From a virus: 64,000 nucleotides of DNA. Position 1 is the first letter of the stretch. Every line of letters begins with the position of its first letter. The notes below the pieces were generated by a model. It saw only the letters and a list, made by a program, of their open reading frames with translations, was not told the DNA's origin and made no database searches. Below are positions 5,815-58,498 of this stretch, piece by piece. Both the position numbers and the translations under genes were made by a program. The stretch lies in IMG/VR virus record IMGVR_UViG_3300045988_086138. The stretch is one strand, 5' to 3'.

Positions 5815-5838
5815 GTTATCATTATAAAGATCCTCATT

Positions 5839-6318: not shown

Positions 6319-6332
6319 ACCAAAGAAAAATT

Positions 6333-7451: not shown

Positions 7452-7483
7452 GGTAGTCCCGGTTTCATCTATATAAATTCCCA

Positions 7484-7520: not shown

Positions 7521-7543
7521 ATCATTTTTAAATCTTAGGAAAT

Positions 7544-7945: not shown

Positions 7946-7974
7946 TCTATGAAAATTACATAAGACAGACTAAT

Positions 7975-8871: not shown

Positions 8872-9350
8872 CAAAAGATCACTGGAGAATGGTTAAAAAC
8901 CGTTCATGGGATAGGTATAAAAAGATTATTACCGATTTCTTGGATTGGGATGCGGGAAGACAAACTATAACCTGGGCTAAACATGTTAATCAATTACTTA
9001 GCCATGCAGAGGATAGTATTCCCAAATATTATGATATCCCTATTGAGGCTTTATGTTACTACAATGCTTTCAGAAACTGGCCTATTAATAAGGCTACGAT
9101 TACTGGAGAATTGGATGATGAAAACTTATCAATACTAATTTCTAAATCCTATATAGAGAAGATTGGTTATCTTACACCGGAAGGTTATTGGGATTTTAAT
9201 TGGGAACAAGATAGGTTTGTAATCAATGGTATAACCTATAAACCTTCTGGTGATACTCAAACTGCTCAAGCTAAGGATGAGGCTTTAGTTTTCATGGTTA
9301 TCCTAAAAAGAGACCGTGATACGAATGTAGAATTTGTAGAAAAAGAATAA
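8868..9350 (+). CDS. Hypothetical protein (head-tail connector/neck region by position)
   Basis: 160-aa ORF with an ATGA overlap to the upstream gene. Confidence 0.45.
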   Translation: MTKDHWRMVKNRSWDRYKKIITDFLDWDAGRQTITWAKHVNQLLSHAEDSIPKYYDIPIEALCYYNAFRNWPINKATITGELDDENLSILISKSYIEKIGYLTPEGYWDFNWEQDRFVINGITYKPSGDTQTAQAKDEALVFMVILKRDRDTNVEFVEKE

Positions 9351-9352
9351 GT

Positions 9353-9778
9353 ATGGCAAAGATGTTAGTACTGAGGTGGACACCAATTACTACCAAAAGC
9401 GGAATTTGGTTTGATAGTAATTTGGTTATCCTTAACGGTACCTCTGGAGTTCATATTGAAATGAAGGGTAATGGCAATGATGTAACGGCATTTCAATCGA
9501 TGACCGGAAACAAATTTGTCACTTGTTTTCAAGATTACTTCGGAGATATTTGGGATAAAATAATACCTCATCCTGGTATAGGCCAGGTAATAAAATTCCG
9601 TGTAAATAGACTCCCGGATTATGCTTGCATAAGGGGAGATATTGAAGATGGTGGAGATGTAGACCCAGAAAATCCAGATGTACCAATGAATGCCTTCTGT
9701 GGTTCAGAAGGGGAACCATTCAGGGATATAGATTCAGAATTTTTACTGGGTCGTCAACGTGCAGTAATTAATCCTTAA
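9353..9778 (+). CDS. Hypothetical protein (neck/fibre-attachment region by position)
   Basis: 141-aa ORF, tightly packed. Confidence 0.45.
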   Translation: MAKMLVLRWTPITTKSGIWFDSNLVILNGTSGVHIEMKGNGNDVTAFQSMTGNKFVTCFQDYFGDIWDKIIPHPGIGQVIKFRVNRLPDYACIRGDIEDGGDVDPENPDVPMNAFCGSEGEPFRDIDSEFLLGRQRAVINP

Positions 9779-9789
9779 ATTTTATAAAT

Positions 9790-41800: not shown

Positions 41801-42388
41801 ATGAAAGGTTTACAATTTTTAGGGAACAGAGTAGAGGATGCAGCTAATGCTTTTATTGATGTCCTCAAGTATTCAGACCAATCAGTAGAGTATCCCGATT
41901 TTAAGGATATCGAACCTTGGCCTGATGAGATAGTTAATATGTTCTATGTAATTTGGAAGAATGCTAAATTCTCAGAACTAAGTGCAATCATTATGTATAC
42001 TCAGCAGTCATCCCAATTTAAAGAGATTTCGGAATTGATGCTGGGTATTGGGTTAGTAGAAATGAGGCATCTTGATAAGATATCCGATTTCATACAGTTA
42101 GCAGACCCCTATGAAAATTACTCTGTAATCAACATTAACCCTACAATTGAAATAGGTCCTACTTGGGAACAGGCTTTGAAGATTGCCTGGGATTCTGAGA
42201 TAGAAACCATAGGTCACTATAAGAAGATTCAAAAGGCAATCGGTCAATACAAAGAACGACCCGATTATGATGATGTGAATTATTTCCTTGAGAAACTTAT
42301 GGCAGATGAGGAACATCATATCAAACTTCTCAAGGAAGCTTTGGGAGTAGATAAGGGTACTAAAGGTGTAACTGTAATCATCAAGTGA
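41801..42388 (+). CDS. Ferritin-like / rubrerythrin-like di-iron carboxylate protein
   Basis: Two E-x-x-H motifs in predicted helices ('LVEMRHLDKI' and 'MADEEHHIKLL') plus additional Glu ('DSEIETIGHY'). Confidence 0.5.
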   Translation: MKGLQFLGNRVEDAANAFIDVLKYSDQSVEYPDFKDIEPWPDEIVNMFYVIWKNAKFSELSAIIMYTQQSSQFKEISELMLGIGLVEMRHLDKISDFIQLADPYENYSVININPTIEIGPTWEQALKIAWDSEIETIGHYKKIQKAIGQYKERPDYDDVNYFLEKLMADEEHHIKLLKEALGVDKGTKGVTVIIK

Positions 42389-44851: not shown

Positions 44852-45038
44852 TATGATATGGGCAATGTTTAAGTTATATCTTAACAACCCAAATTATTAT
44901 GTACGGCAAGATGATGTTCTTGCTGATTTGTTTATGCAGGGTGAATATGACGTAGAAAGATTCTGTCATTCACTCGGAGTAACTCCTCAACGAGGATTAA
45001 CCTTTGGACAACTTTTAAAACAGTGTAATATATTATGA
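44838..45038 (+). CDS. Small hypothetical protein
   Basis: The in-frame ATG at 44838 minimises overlap with the upstream gene (ORF track: 44784). Confidence 0.4.
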   Translation: MQKIDMIWAMFKLYLNNPNYYVRQDDVLADLFMQGEYDVERFCHSLGVTPQRGLTFGQLLKQCNIL

Positions 45039-45574
45039 ACAGATTCAGATTTATCAAAGTAAGGGAGGTAGTATCTCCAAACAGAGCAAACCCAAATGAT
45101 GCTGGGTTAGATTTTTATGTACCAACCGATTTATATCCAGAGCATATTCATTCTAAAAATGAATTAGACTCAGAAGGTTATGATTTAGATGTTCCTTTTG
45201 GTGAAGCCTTTGTAAGGCATATAGCTTTAAAACCTGGACATCGTATACTTATCCCATCTGGTATTAGGGGATTGCTTGAACCACCTGCCTCTATGTTAAT
45301 GGCTGCTAATAAGTCCGGTATAGTTACTAAGCAAGGTTTACTCTTTACAGCTGAGATAGTAGATTCCCCTTATGTAGGAGAGATACATATCGGAGTATAT
45401 AATGCTTCTGATAAGTCTCAAGTTATCGAATGTGGCAAGAAGCTTATACAGTTCATACATGTTCCTATCTACATCACAGAGCCAGAAGAGATTCAACAAG
45501 AAGAATTCTATACTGAGTCTCAAATGTGGGGAAGTAGAGGAGATAAGGGATTTGGTTCATCTCAAAATAAATAA
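45035..45574 (+). CDS. dut: dUTPase-fold deoxynucleotide pyrophosphatase (dUTPase)
   Basis: All five trimeric dUTPase motifs: 'NDAGLDFYVP', 'IPSGI', 'ANKSGIVTKQGL', 'IVDSPYVGEIHIGVYN', 'RGDKGFGSS'. Confidence 0.85.
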   Translation: MNRFRFIKVREVVSPNRANPNDAGLDFYVPTDLYPEHIHSKNELDSEGYDLDVPFGEAFVRHIALKPGHRILIPSGIRGLLEPPASMLMAANKSGIVTKQGLLFTAEIVDSPYVGEIHIGVYNASDKSQVIECGKKLIQFIHVPIYITEPEEIQQEEFYTESQMWGSRGDKGFGSSQNK

Positions 45575-45579
45575 ACATC

Positions 45580-46419
45580 ATGGATGTAAGAAACATAAGA
45601 GAAGAGGTGCCCAATATAAAAGAAACAGAGGTACTTCCACAGATGTATATCTTAGGGTTAGAACAATTAAATGGGTATAGACAAATAGAATCACTACCAG
45701 AGTATCCCTTAGATATAAATAACCCTAAGAGCCAAGTTATACTTAAGGATTTTATTGGTAGGGTAATCGAAGAATTAACTGAAGGCTTTGAATCTACAGA
45801 TTTCGTGGTAGCTATATACCAAAAACATGGGTGGAATAATGATTGCTTAACTGAGGAAGAATATACCGAAGTACTTAATCATCTAGCAAATGCAAATGAA
45901 GAACAAGCAGATGCTTTAGGATTCTTCTTTACTTTGCTTATATATTCCAATATATTGCCAGAGGATATACTTGCATACAATAATGCAAAAAACCTATTTG
46001 AGGTAATGGCTATCGGGGTAAAGGAATTAATAACTAAGTACCCGGATTATCATATAAAGAAATATCCCATATTAAATCCAGAGGACTATGTAGGTGATGT
46101 GGACCAACCAGACTGGGACAAGCTAGTTTCATATACACCAGGCTTTCATAATATGAGTGACTTATCTCATGAAACTGAGAAGTTATATCTATGGGAAGTT
46201 ATATACGAACTGAATAAGGCAAGGAATTTCCTTAAATGCCGTCCTTGGAAACAAACTTCGGTAATGACTAAAGAGATAGAATTTCAGGAGTCATTAGTAA
46301 AATCATTATATATATATATGGGATTCCTTGCATTAAACGGGTTCACTACTCAGGGTTTATTTGGATTATTCTTTAAAAAACAACGCCTCAACTTATGGAG
46401 GCAACAAACTAATTATTAA
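45580..46419 (+). CDS. MazG-like (all-alpha) nucleoside triphosphate pyrophosphohydrolase candidate
   Basis: 'RVIEELTEGFES' (E-E-x-x-E) and 'ANEEQADALGFFFTLLIYSNI' (E-E-x-x-D) in the spacing typical of MazG/dimeric-dUTPase metal-binding helices. Confidence 0.45.
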   Translation: MDVRNIREEVPNIKETEVLPQMYILGLEQLNGYRQIESLPEYPLDINNPKSQVILKDFIGRVIEELTEGFESTDFVVAIYQKHGWNNDCLTEEEYTEVLNHLANANEEQADALGFFFTLLIYSNILPEDILAYNNAKNLFEVMAIGVKELITKYPDYHIKKYPILNPEDYVGDVDQPDWDKLVSYTPGFHNMSDLSHETEKLYLWEVIYELNKARNFLKCRPWKQTSVMTKEIEFQESLVKSLYIYMGFLALNGFTTQGLFGLFFKKQRLNLWRQQTNY

Positions 46420-47332
46420 CGTGTCAGGATGGAATAAAAAATTAGAGGGACTTCAACTAAATACGGAGGAGTCCCTCCATTCGTTAGAATTTGCTACTTC
46501 ACAAGAAGCTTGGGAAAAACTCAATGAGGGATTCTTAAGATTAGACCCAATCCTATTTGGGAAAGGAGCTATGGCTAATAGTGGGGTAGCAGTAGTGTAT
46601 AATGTATTTATAAAAATACGTAAAGCATGGGTAGACCCAGAATTTGATTATGGAAGATGTTTCAATTACAAAGAAACTAAGTGGACTAGCTTATTGAATA
46701 ACTACATAGATTTTAATAAGCTTGACTTATTGCGTAGTAAACTGAGAGTACTGAGAAATAAGTACAATCAGAATTACAATATAACCTATATGTTTAACAA
46801 TCATCATGATAATGGGAAACAATGTCTAATAGCAGCGACTTTTTCAAAACGATTCGGGGAGGACATCCCAGTTATTACAATGGTAGTTCGGGCTTCGGAG
46901 ATTACCAAGAGGTTAATATTCGATTTCCTATTAATTCAACGAATGTCAGAGTACGTATATGGTCCGGACCAGTCAGTACAAATCAATCTATTTGCGACTC
47001 AAATGTACGGAAATGTGGAGACTCTTCTAATGTATCATACCCATAAACCTTTGAAGAAGGTACTAAAGGGAGCAGAAGAGAATTCATGGAATAAGAGGGT
47101 GAAGGAAATATGGAAGAAATTTCAAAATGGTACGGAGAAAGATTTCTCTTCATTCAAGGTATTCTTTAGAAGTTTTAAAGTACTCAGACCAGATTTATAT
47201 GAGGAAACATATAAATCAATGAAAGCAAAAGAATTACTTCTTGAATATGAGGATATTGAATATCCCGAGAATGTAATCTCTTACTCTCAACGTAAAGCAT
47301 ATAAGAAGAAACTTTTAAAACAGAAGAAATGA
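46361..47332 (+). CDS. Divergent thymidylate-synthase-fold paralogue with altered catalytic motifs
   Basis: 'FDYGRCFNY', 'GKQCLIAATF', 'MVVRASEITKRLIFDFLLIQRMSEYV' and 'LFATQMYGN' are collinear with the Y-G, P-C-H, Q-R-S-x-D...N/D and H-x-Y blocks of ThyA-fold enzymes. There is no in-frame ATG near the 5' end (TTG 46361 or GTG 46421). Confidence 0.4.
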   Translation: MDYSLKNNASTYGGNKLIINVSGWNKKLEGLQLNTEESLHSLEFATSQEAWEKLNEGFLRLDPILFGKGAMANSGVAVVYNVFIKIRKAWVDPEFDYGRCFNYKETKWTSLLNNYIDFNKLDLLRSKLRVLRNKYNQNYNITYMFNNHHDNGKQCLIAATFSKRFGEDIPVITMVVRASEITKRLIFDFLLIQRMSEYVYGPDQSVQINLFATQMYGNVETLLMYHTHKPLKKVLKGAEENSWNKRVKEIWKKFQNGTEKDFSSFKVFFRSFKVLRPDLYEETYKSMKAKELLLEYEDIEYPENVISYSQRKAYKKKLLKQKK

Positions 47333-48066
47333 GGATATATTCTAACAGCTTTGAGTTAATGTCAGAACTTGGCAGAGAACTCAACAGTTATGGTCAAACT
47401 GTAAAACCAAAGACCTATCAGAATCAAGTAATTGAAGGTAATGAGGATTTTATAACAAAGGAACTCATTTGCCAACAATATTGCTTAACTTCACTTGGAG
47501 ACCCAATATGGTTATTTGTATTCTCTCATTCAAAAGAATGGGCAGATGCAGAATTTAAAGAGAGAGTATCTAATGATTGGATTAATCCCGGAGATGCTTG
47601 GGAATTAAGGAAAGATTTATGGGAACAGTTTTTAGTAGATGGTCAATTTGATTATACCTATAATGAAAGAATGGCCTGGGTATTACCAAATTTGGTAGAC
47701 CTTTTAAAAGAAGACCAAGATACTCGTAAAGCTATTCTTCCTATATTTAATGGTAGAGGTGAAATAGATACTGATTATTATGATGGAAGTCAACGTATCC
47801 CATGTTCTATGTATTATGATTTTTTAATCAGGGCGAACGGTAAAGGAGAGAAGGTATTACATATTTGTTATCACCAAAGAAGTTCAGATTTTGTTACTCA
47901 CTTTGGTAATGATGTATACCTTGCATGGAGACTTATGGAATATGTAGCTAAAGAGGTTGGTGTTAAACCAGGCTATTTATATCATACTATAGATTCTCTT
48001 CATGCTTATAAGAAGGATTGGTTAGCATTATCATCCAATCTGGAAGATTTACAAGAGAAATATTAA
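47329..48066 (+). CDS. ThyA-fold pyrimidine deoxynucleotide C5-transferase, more similar to dCMP/dUMP hydroxymethylases than to canonical ThyA
   Basis: 'DTRKAILPIFN', catalytic 'RIPCSMYYDFLIR', 'CYHQRSSDFVTHFGNDVYLAW' and 'HTIDSLHAY'. Compare T4 gp42 'DFMCTNTVQYLIRD', 'NMRSNDVVFGFRNDYAW', 'VGSLHVY'. 245 aa against 246 aa for gp42. Confidence 0.7.
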   Translation: MRIYSNSFELMSELGRELNSYGQTVKPKTYQNQVIEGNEDFITKELICQQYCLTSLGDPIWLFVFSHSKEWADAEFKERVSNDWINPGDAWELRKDLWEQFLVDGQFDYTYNERMAWVLPNLVDLLKEDQDTRKAILPIFNGRGEIDTDYYDGSQRIPCSMYYDFLIRANGKGEKVLHICYHQRSSDFVTHFGNDVYLAWRLMEYVAKEVGVKPGYLYHTIDSLHAYKKDWLALSSNLEDLQEKY

Positions 48067-48072
48067 TAATGA

Positions 48073-48108
48073 GGGATGTATCTACTACTGGTGGGTATGT
48101 CCCTTTTT
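48073..48108 (+). terminator. Intrinsic terminator after the nucleotide-metabolism cassette
   Basis: GGGATGTAT (48073-48081) / GTATGTCCC (48095-48103) stem with G-U pairs, then TTTTTCTATTTT. Confidence 0.55.
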
Positions 48109-48120
48109 CTATTTTAAAAT

Positions 48121-50412
48121 ATGGAGACACGGTATACAATAATAAAAAACAAGAAAGAGCTTAAAAAACTTATTGCTTGTTGTAAAGCTACAGGTTATGC
48201 TTGCTGTGACTACGAAACAAATGCAGAACCTATATACAACAAAAGTTTTAAGCCAACTATACTCTCAGTATCCTGGATGCCAGGATTTGGTGCTTCCATA
48301 CCTCTAGACCATTTTGAAACAAAGGATTATACTTCACCTGGATGGAATTGGAAAAAGATGTTAAGGAAATTTGGGGAAGAGGTTATTGAAAATCCAGAGA
48401 TAACTAAGGTTGCATGGAACTGGAAATTTGATGATCAGATTAATCAGAAGTACTTCATATTTTATAGAGGTACATGCTTAGATGGGATGCTTGCAAAATA
48501 TGTTCTCAATGAGGAAAAACCTCATGGGCTAAAGGATATGGTTAGAAGGTATCTACCAGAATATGGTGATTACGAAAAGCAAGATAAGTTCGATAAGATA
48601 CCATGGGGTAAAAAGGAATTAGACCCATTATGCAAATACGGTTGTCAAGATACTGACTTTACATTACGATTAATGATATTCTTTGAGAAGAAGTTAATTG
48701 ATTTAAAGATGTATTCTGTATTCCGTAACCTATTCATGTGTAATTCACGGGTATTAACCTCTGTAGAGAAAGAAGGTTTATACCTAGATACTGAGTTCAA
48801 TAAAAAGCTTTTGGAAGAATATAAACCAAAAATAGATGCTGCTAGACAAGCAATATACGACTTGCCAAAAGTAAAGAAGTTCGAAAAGAAGTACAACCAA
48901 GAAAAGATTGATAAGTACATTGAATCTATTAAAGCTGAACTTGAGGAGTTGGATTATGATGACCCAAAAGACCATCGTAAGATTGTATCAAGGGAACAGA
49001 AAATATCTAATATCAAGGCAGGTATATTCACTACTAAAAAAGAACAAGAACTTATAAGACCCATTAATCTTGGTAGTCCAGTTGATTTACCTAAATTAAT
49101 GTATTCAGAAGATGGGTTTAATTTCGATGTAATCAAGGATAATGAATCTGGTAAGCCAAGTACAGATGAAGAAACTCTTACTAATTTAAGGCTGACGGTT
49201 AAAAAACCTGATTCACCAAAAGCAATATTTCTTGATAAGCTTCTTGAATTGAGAGGGTTAGAAAAAATGTATAAGACCTATATTTATGGTTGGTGGGAAA
49301 AAGTCCAGGATGATTCTCGATTACATGGTAGGTATAATATACATGGTACTGATTCTAACCGGTTTAGTTCTGCAGACCCAAATATGCAGCAGATACCTAA
49401 GACATCTGTAGACCCTAATATCAAGAAACAATTGATTGCTCCTCCTGGTTACTTATATATGGCATTCGACTACTCTCAGGCAGAGCTGAGAATGATGGCT
49501 CACTTATCAGGTGATGAAACCTATCTGGAAGCATTTGCTAAGGGAGTAGACCCTCATCTTGGTATAGCAGCAGCAAAATATGGAGTACCAATTGAAGAAG
49601 CAAGTAAAATATATGAAGACGAAAGTCATCCCGATTATAAACTATGGAAGGTAAGGAGAAAGCAAGCTAAACAAATTGCATTTGGACTTATCTATGGTAT
49701 TGGGGATGCTTTACTAGCAGTAAAATTATCAGACCCCAAAGCTGGTATTATAGTTACCAAGGAAGAAGCTCGTAAGGAAATGGATGAGTTCTTTAAGAAA
49801 CATCCTAAGATACTTAAGTTTAAAGAGAAGCAAGAGAAATTCTTACGTAAGCATGGGTATTATACCCAGTTATTTGGTACTAAACGAAGACTCCCACAAA
49901 TATATTCAAATGATAAGCAAGAAGTTGCTTATGCTATTCGTTTAGGACTTAATTTCCCATGTCAAGGTGCTGCAGCAAATATGACTAACTTTGGAGCTAT
50001 CCTTGTTTATTGGTTAATGAGACAAGGTAAATTACCAATGATGAAAGAAGCTTGTACTGTCCATGATGCAGTATATATGTATTCTAAACCAAAAGATATA
50101 AATACCTGGACAGTATATACTATTTGGAATATTCTACGTAATCCAAGTACTAAGAAGTATTTCGGATTTCAAGTTGATGATGTAGATATGGATATGGACT
50201 TTACTATTGGTAGGTCAATGGCAGAAGAATTACCATTTATCCCAGGGTATGATTATAATAAAATGCTCCAACCAGATTTCTCAGTAGAGGAGTATATGGA
50301 AGAGCATAAGAAGTATAAGCATATCCACATCAAACAATTTAAGGAAAGGTTTAACAAACAGATTAAGAAATATGAAAAAGATTTTGAACGGACCCACAGT
50401 ATGGCGAGCTAA
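48121..50412 (+). CDS. Family A DNA polymerase (Pol I-like) with an N-terminal 3'-5' exonuclease domain
   Basis: Exo 'CCDYETN' and 'YGCQDTDF'. Pol motif A 'DYSQAELRMMAHLSGDE', motif B 'RRKQAKQIAFGLIYG', motif C 'CTVHDAV'. Confidence 0.95.
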   Translation: METRYTIIKNKKELKKLIACCKATGYACCDYETNAEPIYNKSFKPTILSVSWMPGFGASIPLDHFETKDYTSPGWNWKKMLRKFGEEVIENPEITKVAWNWKFDDQINQKYFIFYRGTCLDGMLAKYVLNEEKPHGLKDMVRRYLPEYGDYEKQDKFDKIPWGKKELDPLCKYGCQDTDFTLRLMIFFEKKLIDLKMYSVFRNLFMCNSRVLTSVEKEGLYLDTEFNKKLLEEYKPKIDAARQAIYDLPKVKKFEKKYNQEKIDKYIESIKAELEELDYDDPKDHRKIVSREQKISNIKAGIFTTKKEQELIRPINLGSPVDLPKLMYSEDGFNFDVIKDNESGKPSTDEETLTNLRLTVKKPDSPKAIFLDKLLELRGLEKMYKTYIYGWWEKVQDDSRLHGRYNIHGTDSNRFSSADPNMQQIPKTSVDPNIKKQLIAPPGYLYMAFDYSQAELRMMAHLSGDETYLEAFAKGVDPHLGIAAAKYGVPIEEASKIYEDESHPDYKLWKVRRKQAKQIAFGLIYGIGDALLAVKLSDPKAGIIVTKEEARKEMDEFFKKHPKILKFKEKQEKFLRKHGYYTQLFGTKRRLPQIYSNDKQEVAYAIRLGLNFPCQGAAANMTNFGAILVYWLMRQGKLPMMKEACTVHDAVYMYSKPKDINTWTVYTIWNILRNPSTKKYFGFQVDDVDMDMDFTIGRSMAEELPFIPGYDYNKMLQPDFSVEEYMEEHKKYKHIHIKQFKERFNKQIKKYEKDFERTHSMAS

Positions 50413-51557: not shown

Positions 51558-51950
51558 ATGAATTATTCAATGTCATTTATCTCACCTCTTGTAGCTGAGA
51601 AATTTAATCAAGAATTACCCGGATGTCCAACAGAAAACCGAGTACTTATTTTATCCCCAAAGGAAGTAAATGCAACTATGTCTGGTATTATTATTCCAAG
51701 CCAAGTAAAAGAGGGTATACCCCGTAAAGGAGTAGTAGTAAAGAGTGGTATAATCACTGAAGATTACAAAACTTATAGAGAGTTGGTTGAAATAGGTAGA
51801 GTAGTTACCTATGGATTGTATGCAGGCAAGGAATTGGAATTTGAAACAGACAAATTATCACCTGCTCTTCAACAATTGCTTGAGAAAAACGTTCTTACTG
51901 TACTTAGTATGAACGAGATAGTTTATTCAGAGCCGAATAATCAAAATTAA
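51558..51950 (+). CDS. GroES/Cpn10-like co-chaperonin (T4 gp31 analogue)
   Basis: 'NRVLILSPKEVNATMSGIIIPSQVKEGIPRKGVVVKSG...GRVVTYGLYAGKELEF...LTVLSMNEIV' is collinear with GroES '[37 protein letters not shown]...GDIVIF...GVKSEKI...VLIMSESDIL'. Confidence 0.6.
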   Translation: MNYSMSFISPLVAEKFNQELPGCPTENRVLILSPKEVNATMSGIIIPSQVKEGIPRKGVVVKSGIITEDYKTYRELVEIGRVVTYGLYAGKELEFETDKLSPALQQLLEKNVLTVLSMNEIVYSEPNNQN

Positions 51951-51956
51951 AACATT

Positions 51957-52754
51957 ATGATAAAAGACAAAAAGAAAAAGAAGGTTTCATCTGAGGGGCT
52001 TTCTACTAAAGAAAAGATGATGGCTAGGAAGAAACAGCTTGAATCTAAGGGAAATGGGAGTGGGTTGGTATTCCCAAAAGAAGGTACACTTCGAATGAGA
52101 ATCAAATCTCCAGGTGATGACCAAGAATTGGGTATAGAGATTATTCAATTCTATTTGGGAGGTAATTTAGGTGGAGTAATATCTCCTGCTACTTTCGATG
52201 AACCTTGCCCATTTATGGAAAAGTATCAAGAACTGAAAAATTCCAAAGATGAGGATGACAAGGAGCTTGCAAAAAACCTGGTACCAAGGAGAAGATATGT
52301 TATTGGTGGACCGGTATATGCCGATGAGAAAGGTACTAAGTTTGATTATGATGGTAAGGATAAGGGAGTTTTGGTACCTCGTTCTGTATACCAAGATATT
52401 ATCGACTTATATCTTGATGAGGATGAAGCTGGTGATATGACAGACCCAAGAACAGGATACGATATCAAAATTATTCGTTCTGGTTCTGGTAAGCTTGATA
52501 CAACCTATTCTGCTCGTGCTTGTAAGCCAACTAAGTTGGACAAGAAATATCAAGGTAATGTAGACCTTGAAGGTATAGTTCGTTCTCAAATCAAATCCTA
52601 TGATGAGTTGGAAGAGTTACTTGCTAAGTATTTGAATGAAGACCATGGAGATGATGAGGATGAAAAACCCAAGAAGAAAAAGAAAAAAGGTATTCACAAG
52701 GACCATTACATGGTTGAAAAACCCAAGAAGAAAAAATATAAGTCGGACATTTAA
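51957..52754 (+). CDS. Candidate single-stranded DNA-binding protein
   Basis: Lies between the chaperonin and the recombinase, is followed by a strong terminator, and has charged low-complexity termini. No diagnostic motif. Confidence 0.3.
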   Translation: MIKDKKKKKVSSEGLSTKEKMMARKKQLESKGNGSGLVFPKEGTLRMRIKSPGDDQELGIEIIQFYLGGNLGGVISPATFDEPCPFMEKYQELKNSKDEDDKELAKNLVPRRRYVIGGPVYADEKGTKFDYDGKDKGVLVPRSVYQDIIDLYLDEDEAGDMTDPRTGYDIKIIRSGSGKLDTTYSARACKPTKLDKKYQGNVDLEGIVRSQIKSYDELEELLAKYLNEDHGDDEDEKPKKKKKKGIHKDHYMVEKPKKKKYKSDI

Positions 52755-53248: not shown

Positions 53249-54394
53249 ATGGCAAAGAAATCTAAGGTTGGTTTAAAAGTACCAACAGCAAATGAGATGG
53301 CAAAGAAATATGGGAGTATGATAAAATTAGCTTCAGAAGTTACTGATACTGATTTATATATACCATCAACCTTCTTTGCTTTGAATTACCTATTCGGTAA
53401 AGGAATCCCCTATGGTAAGTCAGTAGAAATTGCAGGAGAAGAATCTTCGGGTAAATCCCTGGTAGCTTATAATTTTGCTTATGCTACTCAACAATTGGGA
53501 GGTCATGTAATATGGGTAGATGCAGAACAATCATGGATGAACTCATGGGCAGAGATTAATGGGGTAGACCCAGCAAAGGTAACTATTGTTAATGATACTC
53601 GTATCGAGTATATTGCAGATGTAGTAGCAGACTTAGCAATATATTTACGTTCTCAATTAACTCATAATGAACCGATACTCTTAGTAATCGACTCTATTGC
53701 AGCTACAGATTGTACAGACAATATTGATGCTAAGATGGTTGATGGTAAGGCAGAGATGGGAGGTAGAGCAAAGGCTCTCTATAAGTATTTCCGTATCAGA
53801 AGTGAACTATTCTACAAGCTGGGAGTATCTCAGATTTATATTAACCAATTAAGAACTGCTCTAAATGTTGGATTTGGAAAAGATAATACAACTACAACGG
53901 GAGGCGCTGCACTTAAGTTCTACGCTTCAATCCGAGCTGCTTTCTATTCAGGAAGGTCTGTTACAATCAAACAAAATGGAAAAGAAAGGAAAGCTGGTAA
54001 GCTTGTCACAATCAGACTTATTAAAAATAAGGTTGCCCCTCCTCGACCTACCATCAGTAAATGCCCAGTATATTTTAACCCTAAATTCCATGAAGTTGGG
54101 TTTGATAGATGCTATGGTTTAGAGGATGTATTAGTAGATACAGACGTAATAGAGAAAACTTCTGGTGGGTATAAACTAAAGGGTAAAACACTTGCAAGAG
54201 GGGAAGAGAAATTCCAAAAGCTTTTGGAAGAAGATGATGAACTTCGTAGAAAACTTTTACGAAAAGCCGGAGTAAATACCATAGGTACTACTAAAAAACA
54301 ACTGGGGAAGATAGAAACTAATCTCTTCCCGGTTGATGGTGTAGAATACGAAAATTATGCAGACTCAGATGAAGAGGAGGAAGAAGATGAGTAA
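53249..54394 (+). CDS. RecA/UvsX-like recombinase
   Basis: Walker A 'GEESSGKSLVA', Walker B 'ILLVIDSIAA', 'INQLR', and an acidic C-terminal tail 'DSDEEEEEDE'. Confidence 0.85.
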   Translation: MAKKSKVGLKVPTANEMAKKYGSMIKLASEVTDTDLYIPSTFFALNYLFGKGIPYGKSVEIAGEESSGKSLVAYNFAYATQQLGGHVIWVDAEQSWMNSWAEINGVDPAKVTIVNDTRIEYIADVVADLAIYLRSQLTHNEPILLVIDSIAATDCTDNIDAKMVDGKAEMGGRAKALYKYFRIRSELFYKLGVSQIYINQLRTALNVGFGKDNTTTTGGAALKFYASIRAAFYSGRSVTIKQNGKERKAGKLVTIRLIKNKVAPPRPTISKCPVYFNPKFHEVGFDRCYGLEDVLVDTDVIEKTSGGYKLKGKTLARGEEKFQKLLEEDDELRRKLLRKAGVNTIGTTKKQLGKIETNLFPVDGVEYENYADSDEEEEEDE

Positions 54395-55259
54395 GAAAAC
54401 AATATTATTGATTGATGGGGAGAATATTCTCCATCAGTCTTTTCATAAGTTCGAAAAACTTAAATCTACGGATGGCAAACCAAGTGGAGCAATATTCGGA
54501 TTTTTTAAATCACTACACATGTACCTTACAAGGTTTGAACCAGATGAGGTTTATATCTCATTTGATAATGGGCATTCTCCGGTAAGGATGAAGTTATTGC
54601 CTAACTATAAGGGGCATAGAAAAAATATCTCAGTAGATTATGAATCATTGCAAAAACAAAAGGCAGTGATAATGAAAATACTGGGTATGCTAAGAATTAA
54701 TTATATATTCGATAAAAAGAAATCCACAGTATATGAGGGTGATGATTTCTTAGCATACCTTGCAATTAAAAAATTCCAATCTGAAAAAATGATATTAATA
54801 TCTTCAGACAAGGACTTTAATCAATTGTTATCAAACAATCTAAGGATATATAATCCGAGAAAGGATGAGATGATAAGGATGGATAACTGTAAAGAGTTAT
54901 TCGGATATCATTCTCATGAGACGGTAGAATATCTTGCAATGGTTGGGGATACTTCCGATGATATCCCAGGGTTCCCAGGAATAGGTCCAGTAAAAGCAAG
55001 GAAAATTCTTGATGAGGGTAGGATTGAAAAATTCATTGCTCACAGTAAGAACAAAGAATATCTTCAGATTTGGAAAAGGAATGAGCAATTGATTGACCTT
55101 TTCTGGTTTGTAAGACATAACCCTTTGAAGGAATTGCCCTTAAAAACAAAAAGGGAGTTTAAATATGAGAAATTCAAGAAAGTATGTATCGAATACTCTT
55201 TAGCATCTTTCTTGACAAATGAATTTATAAAACCATTTAAAGCATTACACCATGACTAA
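54387..55259 (+). CDS. Flap endonuclease / 5'-3' exonuclease (T4 RNase H-like)
   Basis: PIN-like 'ILLIDGENILHQSFH', 'EGDDFLA', 'SSDKDFNQL'. H3TH 'GDTSDDIPGFPGIGPVKARKIL'. ATG at 54387 preferred. Confidence 0.85.
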   Translation: MSKKTILLIDGENILHQSFHKFEKLKSTDGKPSGAIFGFFKSLHMYLTRFEPDEVYISFDNGHSPVRMKLLPNYKGHRKNISVDYESLQKQKAVIMKILGMLRINYIFDKKKSTVYEGDDFLAYLAIKKFQSEKMILISSDKDFNQLLSNNLRIYNPRKDEMIRMDNCKELFGYHSHETVEYLAMVGDTSDDIPGFPGIGPVKARKILDEGRIEKFIAHSKNKEYLQIWKRNEQLIDLFWFVRHNPLKELPLKTKREFKYEKFKKVCIEYSLASFLTNEFIKPFKALHHD

Positions 55260-55839
55260 AAGAATAATGTTTGTAGGTCCCTCTGGGATAGGTAAAACCA
55301 CTTTAGCACAATACGTGGCTAAATCACAAAACATACCTTTTGTATCAGGTAGTATGTCGGATTTATTACCGGCTATGAAAGATTTATCTCATAATGAGGT
55401 ATTATCACTCGGTTCTCAGGCAATGCAAACGGCAGATTATCAACTCCTTAGTTTAAGAAACAGACTCTTTAGAGGTAAAGAGGAATTTGTTACAGATAGG
55501 AGTTATGCTGACCTGGCTGCATATTTTTGGTATAAACAATCTAGAACTATTCCGGAATGCGAATTAGAACACTTTATAGGTTGTTGTAAAGCATCAATGG
55601 AAGACCAATGTGATTTAGCAATCTTCCTTCCTCTAAACCTTTGTAATTATTCTGATTGGGCAATGGAAGATAATAAGAAGAGAATTACGAATAGATTCTT
55701 TCAGATTCAGATATCATCGTTGATGGGAGAACTTCTTGCAGATTGGGAAATATCCACATTATGTTTATCAAGTCTGGATTTGGAAGAAAGAAAAGAACAA
55801 ATAGACTATCATATAAACCGGATATGGGGAAAGAAGTAG
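55252..55839 (+). CDS. P-loop nucleotide/nucleoside (or DNA-base) kinase-like protein
   Basis: Walker A 'GPSGIGKTT'. The 'VTDRSYADLAAYF' motif resembles the E/D-R-S motif of dNK/dNMP kinases. Confidence 0.4.
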   Translation: MTKRIMFVGPSGIGKTTLAQYVAKSQNIPFVSGSMSDLLPAMKDLSHNEVLSLGSQAMQTADYQLLSLRNRLFRGKEEFVTDRSYADLAAYFWYKQSRTIPECELEHFIGCCKASMEDQCDLAIFLPLNLCNYSDWAMEDNKKRITNRFFQIQISSLMGELLADWEISTLCLSSLDLEERKEQIDYHINRIWGKK

Positions 55840-56792
55840 TATTTATAGCATTCTCGGATTTGCACATAAACTTATGGGCAAAGTTTAATGAGAACAATAG
55901 TAGGACCTTGAACTCTTTCAAGGTCCTGTCTATTATTGCCTCTAAATGTGAAAAGTATAAATGTCCTGCTTTATTTTGTGGTGATCTGTTTCATAAACCC
56001 GAGTCAATAGATCAGGATTTGGCCTTAATCGTAGAAGAAGAGTTTGAAAAGCTTACTAAATATAAATGGAATCTGATATACATAAATGGCAATCATGATT
56101 TGAAAGGTATTAATCGAATTGATAATATACGAAAAGGATGGCCATATATATTTTGGAAACCCTTTATGATATGCGTTGATGGTAATAGGTATAAACATGC
56201 TTCTTATGGGGATTACCATATATATGGTGTACCGTACATTGATAATAATGTGGGTCTAAGTGAATATCTTAAGAAACTCAAATTAGATAAGAATGTAAAG
56301 AACATTTTACTTCTTCATACTGATTACCCGGGAGCAAGAGATACTGATGGCAGGGAGGTTGATTCTGTAGAAAATCTGAATGTGAATACTCTAAACAAAT
56401 TTGACTTGGTATTATGTGGACATATACATAAACCCCAAAGACTGTCAAAGAAGGTTTATATGATAGGTGCACCTAATCACCAAAGAAGAACTGATAGAGG
56501 TTGTAAATTAGGGTATTGGGAGATATATTCAGATTTATCCATGAAGTTCATCCCTTTAAAAGAGTTTCCGAAATTTATTGATGTAGAAAAGGAGGATGAT
56601 ATTAAAGATGATGGCAATTATTATACTGTAATTCCCCCAAAAGCTAGTAATCCAGTTAATAATAAACATAAGATTACTAAGCAACTTTCTAAGAAAACTC
56701 TAGCAAAGAGATACTTAAAAGAGAAAGGTATAAAAGATGAGGTTAAAACCAATCTTTTAATTGAAACACTTAAAAAAGCTGAATCATGTTAA
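55824..56792 (+). CDS. Mre11/SbcD-like nuclease (T4 gp47 analogue)
   Basis: Calcineurin-like phosphoesterase motifs 'FSDLHINLW', 'CGDLFH', 'INGNHD', 'LLHTDYPGA', 'CGHIHKPQ'. Confidence 0.85.
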   Translation: MGKEVVFIAFSDLHINLWAKFNENNSRTLNSFKVLSIIASKCEKYKCPALFCGDLFHKPESIDQDLALIVEEEFEKLTKYKWNLIYINGNHDLKGINRIDNIRKGWPYIFWKPFMICVDGNRYKHASYGDYHIYGVPYIDNNVGLSEYLKKLKLDKNVKNILLLHTDYPGARDTDGREVDSVENLNVNTLNKFDLVLCGHIHKPQRLSKKVYMIGAPNHQRRTDRGCKLGYWEIYSDLSMKFIPLKEFPKFIDVEKEDDIKDDGNYYTVIPPKASNPVNNKHKITKQLSKKTLAKRYLKEKGIKDEVKTNLLIETLKKAESC

Positions 56793-58498
56793 CATTTCTA
56801 AGTATGGATGCAGAGGGATTCTGTTCAATAGAATCCCTACATTTGTTATTGAATACTCAATGTACCATACTAATCAAAGCTCCGAATGGCAAAGGGAAAT
56901 CCACTATCCTTTCAGCTTTGGTATGGGCAATATATGGGAAGAATCTAAAGGGAGTTTCTGAGGTAAATACCTGGAAACAAGTAAGACCTAAAGATTATAA
57001 AGGTACAAAGGTACAAGTATACTTCCAAAAAGACTCACATACTTATAAGATACTAAGGTGTCAAAAATATGAAGGAGTAATCGATGATGGGGCTAAAGGT
57101 AAAGACAGACTTATATTTATCAAGGATGGAGATGTAATTGATATAAAAGGGAAAGGTAAGATACAGGATGCCATAAACAGAGAAATAGGTTTGTCATATA
57201 CTTTGTTTATGAATTCAATTATGTTTGGCCAGGGTATAAGGAGGCTTATACAAGAGTCTAATTCAGACAAGAAAAAGATATTTGAAGAAGTATTTGATTT
57301 AGAGTTCTTAAACCTTGCTAAGGGCATTGCATTGCAGGATAAGAATAACCTTATATCTCAGATAAATGAAGTAGAGCATGAGTCTCAAATGCTGAAGAAA
57401 GAATTAGAGGCTAATAAAGAGGCTTACTTTGATATGAGAGATAGGGAAAAATCTTTCAAACAAAAGATTAGGGAAGAAAGGAAAGAACTAAAACAAGATA
57501 GGGAGAAGCTAACTAAGTTACTGATTGAAAAACAAAAACAGATTAAAGATGAAGTAGATGCCTCACTTCAGATAAAGATTAAGAAACAAAACAAATTAAT
57601 CCTTGATTTAAGGGGTAAGATAAAAGATGCTAAGAGTTTATCCAATGTACCTCTCAAGACGGTAATTAAGGAATTAGTAATACAGTTAGAGGCAGGCCAC
57701 TACAAACGTGCATTACGTGATGCTAAATCAATATATAAAGCGTTCTCTGACCTTGATAAATATGATAAAGAGTATCAAGAGGCTTTAGAAAGGTTAGAAG
57801 AACTTGGTAGTGTAAATGATAAGTATAGGAAATTAAAATCTGATTGTGATGATATTGCTTCTGATATTGCTTCTGTTGATGAGGATTTGGCTAAGCTCAA
57901 ACAGGAAAAACTTAAAGTCATGTCTCCCAAGTATAAACAGAAACTTAAAGAGATTAGGAAAAAATTACGGAAGGTTGATGAGGATTTTCACAACAAAGAA
58001 TTAGAGCTTGAGAATTACAATTGGTTAATCAATGACCCATTGGGAAATAATGGGATTAAAGCTTATTTATTCGATTCCTCTCTTGAGTTCTTGAACAAAT
58101 GTTTAGAAAAATATTCAGAAGTATTAGGATTTAGGATTGAATTTAATATCGATTTGGGTACTGCTAGAAAAGAGTTTGTTACTCTTATAGAAAGAGATGG
58201 GCAAATAATTGATTATGATGAACTTAGTGGAGGAGAAAAACAATTATGTAATGTTGCAATGGCATTTGCAATGAATGAAGCTCTTACTGCTTCTAAAGGT
58301 ATCAATTTAGCATTCCTTGATGAGGTATTCGAATCTTTAAGTTCGGATAATGTTGAAATAGTTACATCACTAATACGACACATATTCAAAGAAAAAACCT
58401 TATTCTTAATAACCCATCTAGATTCACTTCCATTGGGTAATACTAAAATCCTGCAAGTGGAAAAGACCCAAGGCCTGAGTAGGTACCAATTACTATAA
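56786..58498 (+). CDS. Rad50/SbcC-like ATPase (T4 gp46 analogue)
   Basis: Walker A 'APNGKGKSTILSAL', a long central coiled coil, signature 'LSGGEKQL', Walker B 'LAFLDEVFESL'. Confidence 0.85.
   Translation: MLTFLSMDAEGFCSIESLHLLLNTQCTILIKAPNGKGKSTILSALVWAIYGKNLKGVSEVNTWKQVRPKDYKGTKVQVYFQKDSHTYKILRCQKYEGVIDDGAKGKDRLIFIKDGDVIDIKGKGKIQDAINREIGLSYTLFMNSIMFGQGIRRLIQESNSDKKKIFEEVFDLEFLNLAKGIALQDKNNLISQINEVEHESQMLKKELEANKEAYFDMRDREKSFKQKIREERKELKQDREKLTKLLIEKQKQIKDEVDASLQIKIKKQNKLILDLRGKIKDAKSLSNVPLKTVIKELVIQLEAGHYKRALRDAKSIYKAFSDLDKYDKEYQEALERLEELGSVNDKYRKLKSDCDDIASDIASVDEDLAKLKQEKLKVMSPKYKQKLKEIRKKLRKVDEDFHNKELELENYNWLINDPLGNNGIKAYLFDSSLEFLNKCLEKYSEVLGFRIEFNIDLGTARKEFVTLIERDGQIIDYDELSGGEKQLCNVAMAFAMNEALTASKGINLAFLDEVFESLSSDNVEIVTSLIRHIFKEKTLFLITHLDSLPLGNTKILQVEKTQGLSRYQLL

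Follow-up and report, generated by a model that had tools for sequence, protein, structure and literature searches.

A four-gene cassette upstream of a family A DNA polymerase

Four genes, hereafter called g1–g4, occupy positions 45035–48066 (plus strand) of the window, a 64,000-nucleotide stretch of viral DNA (IMG/VR record IMGVR_UViG_3300045988_086138). As originally predicted, all are present on the same strand and coupled: g1 overlaps the upstream open reading frame (ORF) by 4 nt, g3 starts one base past the g2 stop, and the g3 stop and g4 start overlap as ATGA. The terminator anticipated between cassette and DNA polymerase was also found, as a terminator-like hairpin and T-run that closes the cassette (48071–48115, plus strand; stem 48071–48105 with 16 pairs, 5 of them G-C; loop of 3; T-run tail TTTCTATTTT). 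Beyond it lies the gene for a family A DNA polymerase (PolA) with a 3'-5' exonuclease (48121–50412, plus strand; phrog_17, E = 4.2e-101); an identical gene in contigs matches both PF01612 and PF00476.

The first gene, g1 (45035–45574, plus strand; 179 aa), encodes a trimeric dUTPase that scores above the PF00692 gathering score (E = 4.8e-13; 49.4 bits, cutoff 22) and matches phrog_135 (1.1e-19) and, under the equivalog cutoff, TIGR00576 (3.4e-17). The complete set of five motifs claimed for it is readable in the translation (AGLDFY, PSGI, IVDSPYVGEI, LIQF and RGDKGFGSS). No thymidylate synthase (TS) of its own was found in the source phage; g1 would supply dUMP and keep the dUTP pool low, independently of any cytosine pathway.

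The second gene, g2 (45580–46419, plus strand; 279 aa), encodes an all-alpha NTP pyrophosphohydrolase of the dimeric dUTPase/T4 gp56 dCTPase type. It matches phrog_12184 (7.5e-18), PF08761 below its gathering score (1.1e-3; 19.7 bits against 22.9) and the Campylobacter jejuni dimeric dUTPase 1w2y (E = 0.082). Its family is invariant at E64 E65 xx E68 and E107 E108 xx D111, which form the metal-binding motifs EExxE...EExxD, at PWKQ, and at a C-terminal KK..N..R....Y. Comparison of the family with T4 gp56 by hhalign gave a probability of 77.5% (E = 1.9e-5) over the C-terminal 49 residues only. The all-alpha pyrophosphatase fold proposed earlier thus stands, while its MazG-like label gives way to the dimeric dUTPase/dCTPase branch, which had been missed. 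We regard g2 as a candidate dCTPase that would make dCMP and remove dCTP.

The third gene, g3 (46421–47332, plus strand; 303 aa, GTG start), encodes an uncharacterised TS-fold paralog. A mechanically called TTG start at 46361 was rejected, as the N-terminus of homologs reads MSGWN and independent gene calls predict a 303-aa protein. No match to g3 was found in Pfam or NCBIfam, its PHROG match (phrog_34294) is labelled 'unknown function', and its nearest BFVD matches are 'uncharacterized protein' throughout. Searching its AlphaFold2 (AF2) model (alignment A4; pLDDT 81.3, pTM 0.80) against the PDB with Foldseek returned the dCMP hydroxylase AfhB (9iqu; 1.1e-5), MilA (1.3e-5) and T4 dCMP hydroxymethylase (dCH; 1.9e-4), followed by ThyA entries. 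TS-superfamily enzymes account for all PDB matches at E <= 1e-3 and for almost all of the top 50. g3 retains equivalents of Cys146, Arg166, Asp169 (as Glu), Asn177 (as Asp), Trp80 and Tyr94, and lacks the Arg126/Arg127 pair. Its hhalign match to the g4 family (E = 2.4e-4, probability 44%) pairs C135 with C159, R157 with R184, E160 with D187 and D168 with D195.

The last gene, g4 (47329–48066, plus strand; 245 aa), encodes a TS-family enzyme (PF00303, 3e-11) with Asp at the pyrimidine-specificity position; every NCBIfam TS equivalog scores far under its cutoff. Two ThyA-fold proteins are therefore present, as had been proposed, g3 by modelled fold and g4 by family.

Specificity and signature residues of g4

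The sequence strings singled out in the original prediction (RIPCS, RSSD and FGNDVYLAW) all occur in g4, and alignment places Asp rather than Asn at the specificity site. Asp195 falls in the same alignment column as Asn177 of E. coli, Asp179 of T4 and the introduced Asp of the N229D mutant of L. casei. It is invariant in 64 diverse relatives (33–65% identity), together with E45, W98, Y109, Y111, R133, R156, C159, R184, S185 and H225, and D187 is kept in at least 90% of them. The Asn-to-Asp change switches TS to dCMP (PMC8670742; PMC13326640), and TS homologs with Asp177 are enriched on cytosine-modified viral contigs (PMC8670742). Consistent with this, the solved structures nearest g4 act on dCMP or CMP: AfhB of HY126, its best PDB sequence match, with dCMP (9iqu/9iqc; 1.7e-19), and MilA.

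In the T4 5-hydroxymethylcytosine (hmC) pathway, gp56 (dCTPase/dUTPase), gp42 (dCMP hydroxymethylase) and gp1 (dNMP kinase) follow the same logic with the same protein types. The g4 family (A2) matches gp42 by hhalign (probability 98.1%, E = 1.3e-13), and the two share the TS fold, the catalytic Cys, Asp179-type specificity and the lack of a C-terminal tail, a stated dCH feature (PMC6400193): g4 ends 18 residues after H-x-Y, where E. coli ThyA and the TS of phage PaMx74 continue for about 55. However, the published dCH signature consists of Asp/Glu at Cys-3 and Ser/Thr at Tyr-2, and in T4 the D145N change already abolishes 5hm-dCMP formation (PMC6400193). Where gp42 has the water-activating pair Asp145/Ser94, g4 has the invariant Arg156 at Cys-3 and Tyr109 at Tyr-2. 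These residues speak against the gp42-type label originally given to g4; its nearest solved relative is AfhB, and gp42 lies outside its best 60 PDB matches. g4 also lacks the D169N signature of 5-hydroxy-dCMP synthases, as well as the TS C-terminal tail. Neither g4 nor g3 fits any of the three types of enzyme that have been characterised, and current rules do not assign the g4 product. Because g4 falls outside both the gp42 and the AfhB signatures, a hydroxymethyl product is only the favoured guess, and a 5-methyl product is a real rival.

Recurrence in related phages and the surrounding genome

We counted gene linkage across 80 diverse IMG/VR loci related to the module. Its order is kinase, g2, g3, g4, in some cases a deaminase or ThyX gene, and then PolA. 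g2 is present in 78 loci, a small kinase in 69 and g3 in 60, and PolA follows the TS gene in 59. Of 9 metagenome-assembled genome (MAG) contigs, 8 keep the kinase-to-PolA order, as do cultured Clostridium perfringens phages. A dCMP-deaminase-family gene accompanies the module at 41 of the 80 loci and ThyX at 10, but the two never occur together (0 loci), suggesting that they provide alternative dTMP routes. The presence of ThyX beside the module in several lineages implies that the Asp-type TS is not there for dTMP. Some loci carry two copies of g3; in several lineages ThyX, deaminase, HNH or Cpn10 genes lie between g3 and g4, and at 20 of the 80 loci the same TS signature occurs with no g3 within 6 kb. 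DHFR was found in neither the window nor its flanks, and at only one of the 80 loci. IspD and LicD adjoin the same TS clade in one human-faeces relative, and in relative L183 the genes against it encode GT1, LicD, cytidylyltransferase, sulfotransferase-like and Asn-synthase-like proteins. The LicD, cytidylyltransferase and glycosyltransferase genes favour a hydroxyl-bearing product such as 5hmC.

The source phage is abundant in the human gut and of Bacteroides type. In genome form and layout it matches "Flandersviridae" as published (Benler et al. 2021, PMC8008677), of which it is a putative member: the genome is circular, about 85.7 kb and from the human gut, with DnaB, primase and PolA placed after a structural block and ahead of about 20 kb of unknown ORFs. 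Some members have ispD/licD inserted into the replication module, genes interpreted as serving isoprenoid or teichoic-acid functions (PMC8008677); the terms 'thymidylate', 'dUTPase', 'hydroxymethyl' and 'modification' have zero occurrences in the main text of that paper.

No group-transferase was detectable across about 84 kb of this 85.7-kb genome, in agreement with the original prediction, and no deaminase was found in the phage. The P-loop gene noted earlier does exist (55252–55839, plus strand), but its kinase character is weak: the product matches phrog_2107 'thymidylate kinase' (2.6e-8) and PF13521 AAA_28 (1.7e-7), and within NCBIfam gives P-loop-level matches only (adenylate kinase, about 1e-3). 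It shares no similarity with the small kinase at the head of the module in Firmicutes-type phages; a homolog occurs in locus L100, 6 kb downstream of the module. Two further features had been missed. One is a phage-encoded C5 DNA methyltransferase, the 3' end of whose gene is window positions 1–477; the other is that GATC is about 13-fold under-represented in the genome. CATATG and ATGCAT are absent altogether, while the C-rich 4-mer palindromes CCGG, GCGC, ACGT, TCGA and AGCT show no avoidance. These depletions indicate that the DNA is evidently still open to restriction at some sites, and, with the methyltransferase, they weaken the case for a complete, fully protective cytosine replacement.

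A proposed route to modified deoxycytidine and its rivals

From the folds, families, residue identities and gene linkage observed here, we infer substrates, products and incorporation into DNA as follows. The conserved gene set very probably makes a chemically changed cytosine building block for the phage DNA. We tentatively favour the reading that the cassette is a pre-replicative pathway feeding a C5-substituted deoxycytidine nucleotide, preferably 5hmC, to the phage PolA. The gp56-like g2 would convert dCTP to dCMP. Cys159 of g4 would attack C6 of dCMP, with Asp195 reading the N3/N4 face of cytosine, and a one-carbon unit would pass from methylene-tetrahydrofolate to C5, g4 retaining the folate-binding Asp169 equivalent as Asp187. 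Water would most likely capture the exocyclic methylene intermediate to give 5-hydroxymethyl-dCMP, since g4 lacks the site-sealing C-terminal tail and has polar Arg156/Tyr109 in place of T4 Asp145/Ser94. A kinase (possibly the 55252–55839 product, otherwise one from the host) and host NDP kinase would then yield the triphosphate for incorporation by PolA. As a second catalytically equipped TS-fold enzyme, g3 would act on a cytosine ring within the same pathway, whether paired with g4 or at a later stage.

This hydroxymethylation route shares with T4 a gp56-like all-alpha pyrophosphatase, a kinase and a phage DNA polymerase; unlike T4, the cassette adds the paralog g3 and a separate trimeric dUTPase, and the genome has a C5 DNA methyltransferase and no glucosyltransferase. 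A hydroxymethylase gives back THF and needs no DHFR (PMC6400193), so the absence of DHFR counts in its favour, as does the lack of avoidance of C-rich palindromes. Against it stand the unmatched dCH signature, the site avoidance, the weak kinase assignment and the methyltransferase, which needs unsubstituted cytosine in DNA.

Less likely in our view, though a serious rival, is that g4 is a dCMP methyltransferase (5-methyl-dCMP synthase) placing 5mC in phage DNA; relatives with an adjacent deaminase would then also obtain dTMP through deamination of 5-methyl-dC nucleotides, a route put forward for Xp12-type phages. The exclusivity of deaminase and ThyX fits that route and tells against hydroxymethylation, as does the non-acidic Cys-3 residue that g4 shares with the TS of PaMx74 (Asn), a phage with reported complete replacement of C by 5mC; Asp at position 177 and the retained Asp169 also agree with 5-methylation. 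Xp12/PaMx74-type modules combine a pyrophosphatase, an Asp177 TS, a dCMP-family deaminase and DHFR, a neighbourhood logic shared by the many module relatives with a deaminase beside TS and PolA. Moreover, 5 of 7 deaminase-linked Asp177 TS homologs are reported to make 5mdCMP, and these sit in TS/deaminase/pyrophosphatase/PolA neighbourhoods (preprint 10.1101/2024.12.05.627091). Yet the PaMx74 TS (298 aa) has the full tail that seals the TS site for hydride transfer, whereas g4 does not, and the site-drying W83 and L143 are replaced in g4 by Phe101 and Arg156. PaMx74 has a MazG/PRA-PH type pyrophosphatase, typical of 5mC systems, and an adjacent DHFR; here the pyrophosphatase is of dUTPase_2 type, and both deaminase and DHFR are missing from the window. 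The transferase genes abutting the same TS clade would, in addition, need a hydroxyl acceptor.

It is more doubtful that g3 and g4 jointly make an undescribed cytosine C5 adduct. For example, g4 might form a methylene or hydroxymethyl intermediate that g3 re-opens via its Cys at C6 and hands to another nucleophile; alternatively, g3 might supply the missing sealing or reducing function. g4 lies outside all three published signatures, and g3 has a full catalytic-type residue set, no annotated relatives, frequent linkage to g4, sometimes in two copies, and translational coupling here. The Arg126/Arg127 pair, contributed by one TS subunit to the site of the other, is absent in g3 while g4 keeps Arg133, so a g3/g4 heterodimer would complete only the g3 site. 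The 20 loci without nearby g3, the genes inserted between g3 and g4, and the weak profile link of g3 to the TS family argue against such joint action. We consider it improbable that the cassette merely reshapes nucleotide pools, as a host dCTP drain or inhibitor, leaving virion DNA canonical save for site-specific methylation. The methyltransferase and the avoided sites are typical of methylation/site-avoidance phages, and such genomes are routinely assembled from ordinary metagenomes, although this says little because 5mC and 5hmC are no hindrance to sequencing. But the module sits directly 5' of PolA in most lineages with a dedicated kinase, and the enrichment of Asp177 homologs on modification-positive viral contigs is empirical (PMC8670742). 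Least probable of all is that g4 belongs with the flavin-dependent 5-hydroxy-dCMP synthases such as HY126 AfhB and RB69 gp48. Among solved structures this group, which also includes DLP3 gp80, comes closest to g4 in sequence and to g3 in fold; AfhB-type enzymes are likewise short, tail-less Asp177 TS homologs and bind dCMP, and a 5-hydroxyl handle would also suit the relatives' transferases. However, all verified 5hodCMP synthases carry D169N, with Glu at Cys-3 and use of flavin and O2 (PMC13326640), where g4 has Asp and Arg.

The broader original prediction of a C5-modified pyrimidine pathway is supported by the TS folds, Asp195, the gp56-type g2 and the recurrence of the module beside PolA. 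A C5-modified dCMP pathway is a sensible reading of these sequences, with PolA, the constant downstream neighbour of the module, as the presumed consumer of the modified dNTP.

Organization of the cassette and its two pyrophosphatase genes

Four co-directional genes on the plus strand lie directly upstream of the family A DNA polymerase (PolA, 48121–50412) and form a real, non-random cassette, most plausibly a pathway that modifies dCMP at C5 and supplies PolA. The first gene, g1 (45035–45574), encodes a trimeric dUTPase and overlaps the upstream ORF by 4 nt. It is followed by g2 (45580–46419), an all-alpha pyrophosphatase gene whose TAA stop was read directly at 46417–46419, and by g3, a thymidylate synthase (TS)-fold gene that starts with a GTG at 46421, one base past the g2 stop. 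The last gene, g4 (47329–48066), encodes a TS-family enzyme, and its ATG overlaps the g3 stop. We assign the GTG as the g3 start because homolog N-termini and independent gene calls agree: homologs all begin MSGWN where the window reads VSGWN, and contigs carrying the identical gene give a protein of 303 aa. A 16-pair hairpin with a T-run occupies 48071–48105, upstream of PolA, in a region with 8 terminator-like sites versus 2.0 ± 1.6 in shuffles. The ORFs, their overlaps and this hairpin confirm the original prediction of four coupled genes closed off by a terminator before the polymerase. Among 50,697 phage records, megablast found no match to the cassette.

g1 matches PF00692 (4.8e-13) and phrog_135 (1.1e-19), which bears out its earlier naming as a dUTPase, and its sequence identifies it as an ordinary trimeric enzyme. 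g2 had been called MazG-like, a label that stands in the superfamily sense only; by sequence, its actual branch appears to be that of the dimeric dUTPases/dCTPases. The g2 protein matches a PHROG pyrophosphohydrolase family (7.5e-18), while its match to Pfam dUTPase_2 (PF08761; 1.1e-3) scores 19.7 bits, under the cutoff of 22.9, and covers residues 187–279 only. A PDB sequence search with the single g2 sequence gave no match, but its C-terminal part aligns with T4 gp56 dCTPase/dUTPase (hhalign 77.5%, E 1.9e-5) and faintly with the Campylobacter dimeric dUTPase. Ten members from very different phages share the invariants EExxE, EExxD, PWKQ and a C-terminal KK..N..R....Y. By analogy with T4, and given the separate trimeric dUTPase, g2 would be a dCTPase.

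Two thymidylate synthase-fold proteins and their active sites

The distal enzyme, g4, is a divergent member of the TS family. It matches PF00303 (3e-11) yet falls far under every curated TS cutoff, the best NCBIfam TS model scoring 47 bits against a cutoff of 174. An alignment of the g4 family matches T4 gp42, the dCMP hydroxymethylase (dCH), at 98.1% in hhalign, pairing Cys159 with Cys148. Searching 1.84 billion cluster representatives turned up 1538 clusters related to g4. Close relatives run to over a thousand proteins and to 463 IMG/VR loci; scanning viral contigs with single, distant TS proteins gave almost no matches. Among 64 full-length relatives at 33–65% identity, E45, W98, Y109, Y111, R133, R156, C159, R184, S185, D195 and H225 never vary, and D187 (of RSSD) is kept in at least 90%.

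The residue register of g4 is the same in three independent alignments. Catalytic Cys159 corresponds to Cys146 of E. coli ThyA and Cys148 of T4 gp42, Arg184-Ser185 to Arg166-Ser167 and the Arg-Ser of gp42 RSND, Asp187 to Asp169 and Asp171, and Tyr111 to Tyr94 and Tyr96. The E. coli Asn177 position is occupied by Asp, not Asn: Asp195 aligns with Asp179 of gp42, so that the by-eye alignment in the original prediction was right. The g4 profile also retrieves the L. casei N229D mutant, with the mutant Asp aligned to Asp195. An Asp at this position switches TS to dCMP, and no marker of cytosine-modified viral contigs is stronger than Asp177 TS homologs (PMC8670742; PMC13326640).

Beyond this Asp, the residues of g4 appear to match none of the three literature signatures, namely those of dCH, 5-hydroxy-dCMP synthase and methyl-forming TS. 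dCH forms 5-hydroxymethyl-dCMP and releases THF, not DHF. Its signature comprises Asp/Glu three residues before the catalytic Cys (Cys-3), Ser/Thr two before Tyr and no C-terminal tail, and D145N abolishes T4 dCH activity (PMC6400193). g4 resembles dCH in TS fold and family, catalytic Cys, Asp at the Asn177 position and lack of a TS-type tail, but has invariant Arg156 at Cys-3 in place of Asp/Glu and invariant Tyr109 (Tyr109-Thr110-Tyr111) where T4 has Ser94-x-Tyr96. These two residues break the signature, and the earlier gp42-type hydroxymethylase label for g4 falls with it. In T4, the two signature residues contact each other. Because both contacting positions changed together, the Arg/Tyr pair of g4 could replace the function of Asp/Ser.

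D169N is diagnostic in all verified 5-hydroxy-dCMP synthases (PMC13326640). g4 keeps Asp187 at this position, in contrast to synthases of the AfhB/RB69 gp48 type, which bind flavin and hydroxylate with O2, although no solved structure matches g4 better than AfhB of phage HY126. Methyl-forming TS depends on Trp83, on Leu143 as a hydrophobic residue and on a C-terminal tail that seals the site. Where canonical ThyA has these features and Asn177, g4 has Arg156, Phe101, no tail and Asp195; together with its scores under the curated cutoffs, this led us to reject g4 as a canonical thymidylate synthase. Only 18 residues follow the H-x-Y motif in g4, compared with 26 in gp42 and about 55 in E. coli ThyA, and the median in 82 relatives is 8. 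Phage PaMx74 is reported to replace C entirely with 5mC, and its TS ends in a tail of 54 residues and carries Asn at Cys-3, unlike the 18 residues and Arg of g4. The 5-methyl-dCMP synthase (Xp12/PaMx74) type combines Asp177 with a full-length TS architecture capable of hydride transfer and has DHFR and a deaminase alongside. Against this type g4 gives a mixed picture: Asp177 is present, the tail is absent, and neither DHFR nor a deaminase was found in the window or its flanks.

The cassette also carries an additional, unstudied partner, g3, which is predicted from its structural model and profile register to be a TS-fold protein with the cytosine-type Asp. g3 matches nothing in Pfam or NCBIfam, its PHROG is one of unknown function, and PDB sequence-profile searches with its family returned no matches. 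A first AF2 model from 21 near-identical sequences had a pLDDT of 47, and its Foldseek matches (RavZ, glutaminyl cyclase) were discarded as meaningless. After 11 distant homologs from the C. perfringens-phage branch were added, the model reached a pLDDT of 81 and a pTM of 0.80. A Foldseek search of the PDB with this model ranked AfhB (1.1e-5), MilA (1.3e-5) and T4 dCH (1.9e-4) highest, with ThyA entries next. Twelve PDB matches had E ≤ 1e-3, every one a dCMP/CMP-modifying TS homolog, and the TS superfamily accounted for almost the whole of the top 50; near matches among predicted viral structures were all named "uncharacterized protein". The original prediction of two ThyA-fold proteins therefore holds, for g4 by PF00303 and for g3 by AF2 and Foldseek, both with the cytosine-type Asp.

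Profile-profile comparison of the g3 and g4 families is weak (E 2.4e-4, probability 44%). Its register pairs C135 with C159, R157 with R184, E160 with D187, D168 with D195, W88 with W98 and Y95 with Y111. Across the g3 family, C135, R157, D168, W88 and Y95 do not vary; E160 is replaced by Asp in a single distant paralog. The Arg126/Arg127 pair is missing from g3, which reads NQNY at the site of TRKA in g4 and has a helical C-terminal extension of ~100 residues. In many relatives there are two g3 paralogs, a long form of about 330 aa and a short form of about 250 aa, as in the related loci L002 (8001–8993 and 9863–10600), L003 (6989–7978 and 7971–8756), L096, L097 and L102, and in some cases a ThyX or HNH gene is placed between the two or behind them. 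Of the TS 'SRR' motif, the short paralog retains one Arg, which g3 of the window lacks.

Linkage of the module in other phages

The g2–g3–g4 module recurs next to PolA in distant phages. Cultured C. perfringens phages encode, in order, a small P-loop kinase, homologs of g2, g3 and g4, and, further on, PolA. In one of them, Clostridium phage CPAS-15, the segment at 4616–6582 was deposited with the products 'shikimate kinase', 'dUTPase' and 'colanic acid biosynthesis glycosyltransferase WcaC'. We found no similarity supporting these names, and WcaC, on the g3-type TS-fold protein, looks like a mis-annotation. Among nine MAG contigs binned with Lachnospiraceae, Bacilli, Fusobacteriaceae, Saccharibacteria and others, eight have g2, one or two copies of g3, and g4 in that order. 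Papers on C. perfringens phages CPAS-15, Clo-PEP-1, CPD4 and CP3 deal, by their titles, with an endolysin and with inhibition; a PMBT14 paper makes no statement on DNA modification, and papers and supplements searched for active-site strings and the PDB codes 9IQU and 9IQC held nothing relevant.

We extended this comparison to 80 diverse IMG/VR loci, selected via a Firmicutes-type member of the TS clade and not phylogenetically independent. g2 is present in 78, the kinase in 69, g3 in 60, PolA in 59, a dCMP-deaminase family protein in 41, ThyX in 10 and DHFR in one, and the commonest order is kinase, g2, g3, TS, deaminase, PolA. Whether g3 is present or not, the TS signature is the same: Cys-3 is Arg, Cys+1 is Ser/Thr, Asp169 and Asp177 are kept, and the tail is short. 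Since ThyX adjoins the module, the Asp-type TS is not there for dTMP. Deaminase and ThyX never co-occur, which hints, in loci that are not independent, that the two are alternatives. g3 co-occurs with each of them, and we rejected it as a stand-in for either; absent from 20 of the 80 loci with the TS signature unchanged, it is not obligatory for g4. In one locus (L100), a Cpn10 gene lies between g3 and the TS.

Some relatives place group-transfer genes beside the same TS clade. MT121964 (MT121964.1, locus L003), from human faeces and with a g4 65% identical to ours, has an IspD-family cytidylyltransferase (10143–10898; 1.4e-26) and a LicD-family transferase (10891–11763; 8e-39) exactly between the Asp-type TS gene and PolA. 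An unrelated 115-kb viral contig (L183; IMGVR_UViG_3300023210_000014) has a dense island around the TS at 1401–10147. The island encodes a GT1 glycosyltransferase, an HD protein, GIY-YIG, LicD, a sulfotransferase-like protein, a cytidylyltransferase (2.4e-24), g2, the TS, an Asn-synthase-like amidotransferase (4.6e-34), an N6/N4 DNA methylase and ThyX, and looks like an undescribed base-hypermodification cluster. Group-transfer enzymes such as LicD and glycosyltransferases need a hydroxyl on the base. From their position, the ispD/licD genes of MT121964 may decorate a DNA base; the ispD/licD insertion has been read as serving isoprenoid or teichoic-acid functions (PMC8008677).

The phage, its genome and the product of the pathway

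The window phage likely belongs to the "Flandersviridae", a candidate family with reported hosts in Bacteroides and Parabacteroides that is defined by a ~85-kb genome, a contractile-tail structural block, and TerL and PolA monophyly (PMC8008677). What points to this family is the genome size, the arrangement of the genes and the ispD/licD variant. An exact copy of the g4 protein occurs on circular-size human-gut contigs of ~85.7 kb, alike in size to the family. As in Flandersviridae, DnaB, primase and PolA come after a structural block and lead into ~20 kb of unknown ORFs. The family's ispD/licD variant of the replication module matches a relative of the window phage, and a search with a further alignment (A3) returned near-identical Flandersviridae loci only. 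The words 'thymidylate', 'dUTPase', 'hydroxymethyl' and 'modification' do not occur in the main text of the family's description (Benler et al. 2021; PMC8008677), and full-text matches to 'Flandersviridae' with 'DNA modification' had titles on other subjects only.

Several neighboring genes merit mention. The replication module also encodes ferritin/rubrerythrin-like (41801–42388), Cpn10 (GroES-like) co-chaperonin (51558–51950), gp32-like ssDNA-binding (51957–52754) and UvsX/RecA-like (53249–54394) proteins and an SbcCD-like nuclease pair (55743–58498). PolA has 763 aa in the window versus 1092–1421 aa in relatives (L002, 12260–16525; L003, 11884–15162; L098, 7829–11149), whose insert resembles, by eye, an intein or homing endonuclease. 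Its nearest cultured-phage relatives (27–29% identity) include Bacillus SP-10, SPO1-like phages and several Lysinibacillus, Pseudomonas and Gordonia phages; SP-10 and SPO1-like phages are hydroxymethyluracil-type. The P-loop protein at 55252–55839, pointed out earlier as kinase-like, remains only a candidate kinase by sequence, and it shares no similarity with the Firmicutes-phage module kinase, of which we rejected it as an ortholog.

By walking 10 kb off each window end on matching contigs, we covered about 84 of the 85.7 kb. Beyond the cassette, precomputed Pfam and phmmer detected no glycosyltransferase, IspD, LicD, DHFR, dCMP deaminase, ThyX or second TS in this ~84 kb, a search of limited sensitivity because most ORFs have no detectable family; within that sensitivity, the original statement that no group-transferase was recognised extends to nearly the whole phage. 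The first 477 nt of the window (plus strand) are the 3' end of a gene that runs in from just upstream and is complete on matching contigs (L012, 8729–9772). The 158 codons match, with 100% identity, the C-terminal end of a 347-aa homolog of C5 cytosine DNA methyltransferases (PF00145 1.4e-13; TIGR00675 5.3e-8; motifs AGQG, PDC, ENL and SRKR). Its catalytic motif is SPDCG, not the usual PC.

In the 64-kb window, GATC occurs 18 times versus 241 expected, CATATG 0 versus 18 and ATGCAT 0 versus 13; CTAG and CATG are also depleted, and CCGG, GCGC, ACGT, TCGA and AGCT are at expectation. This pattern is as expected if C5 modification blocks C-sensitive enzymes but not all, and does not prove modification. 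The methyltransferase and GATC avoidance argue against T4-like complete replacement in this phage. The CpG odds ratio is 0.49, and with TpG/CpA at 0.98, not raised, we rejected CpG depletion as a footprint of 5mC deamination.

Taken together, the cassette would work like the T4 system while its defining residues place it outside the gp42, AfhB and Xp12-type families. 5hmC in DNA is our leading, still tentative, candidate for its product, ranked first despite the failed dCH signature because the relatives' transferases need a hydroxyl. 5mC is somewhat unlikely: its best argument, itself only a hint, is that mutual exclusion of deaminase and ThyX fits a route from 5-methyl-dC to dT, and a deaminase stands in 41 of 80 related modules, yet g4 has no sealing tail, carries Arg156 and Phe101 at the Leu143 and Trp83 positions, and has neither DHFR nor a deaminase near it in the window and flanks.

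That g3 takes part in forming a new adduct is unlikely, given the 20 of 80 loci that keep the TS signature and lack g3. We think it very improbable that the cassette serves nucleotide pools only, with no modification of DNA. 5hoC, to which the AfhB match points, is the least probable product, as g4 keeps Asp187 and lacks the D169N change. Broader and bolder, though unlikely, is a reading in which the widespread module of kinase, gp56-like pyrophosphatase, g3 and Arg-type TS makes a C5 modification outside 5mC, 5hmC and 5hoC, g3 would be a new catalytic branch of the TS superfamily, and in some lineages LicD and the cytidylyltransferase would add a phospho-alcohol (teichoic-acid-like) group to the base.

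The Arg/Tyr active-site pair of this TS clade breaks current residue rules for the products of TS homologs, and g3 represents a TS-fold family that carries no annotation in any of the libraries searched. With the same module present in cultured C. perfringens phages, testing either one would be cheap, and such enzymes are sources of epigenetic-sequencing tools. If the bolder reading is true, the 'isoprenoid/teichoic acid' genes of Flandersviridae are DNA-hypermodification genes. In the human gut, phages of this type are reported to be detected at a frequency similar to that of crAss-like phages, and a modified cytosine would affect their host range, their escape from restriction and CRISPR, and modification-sensitive virome methods.
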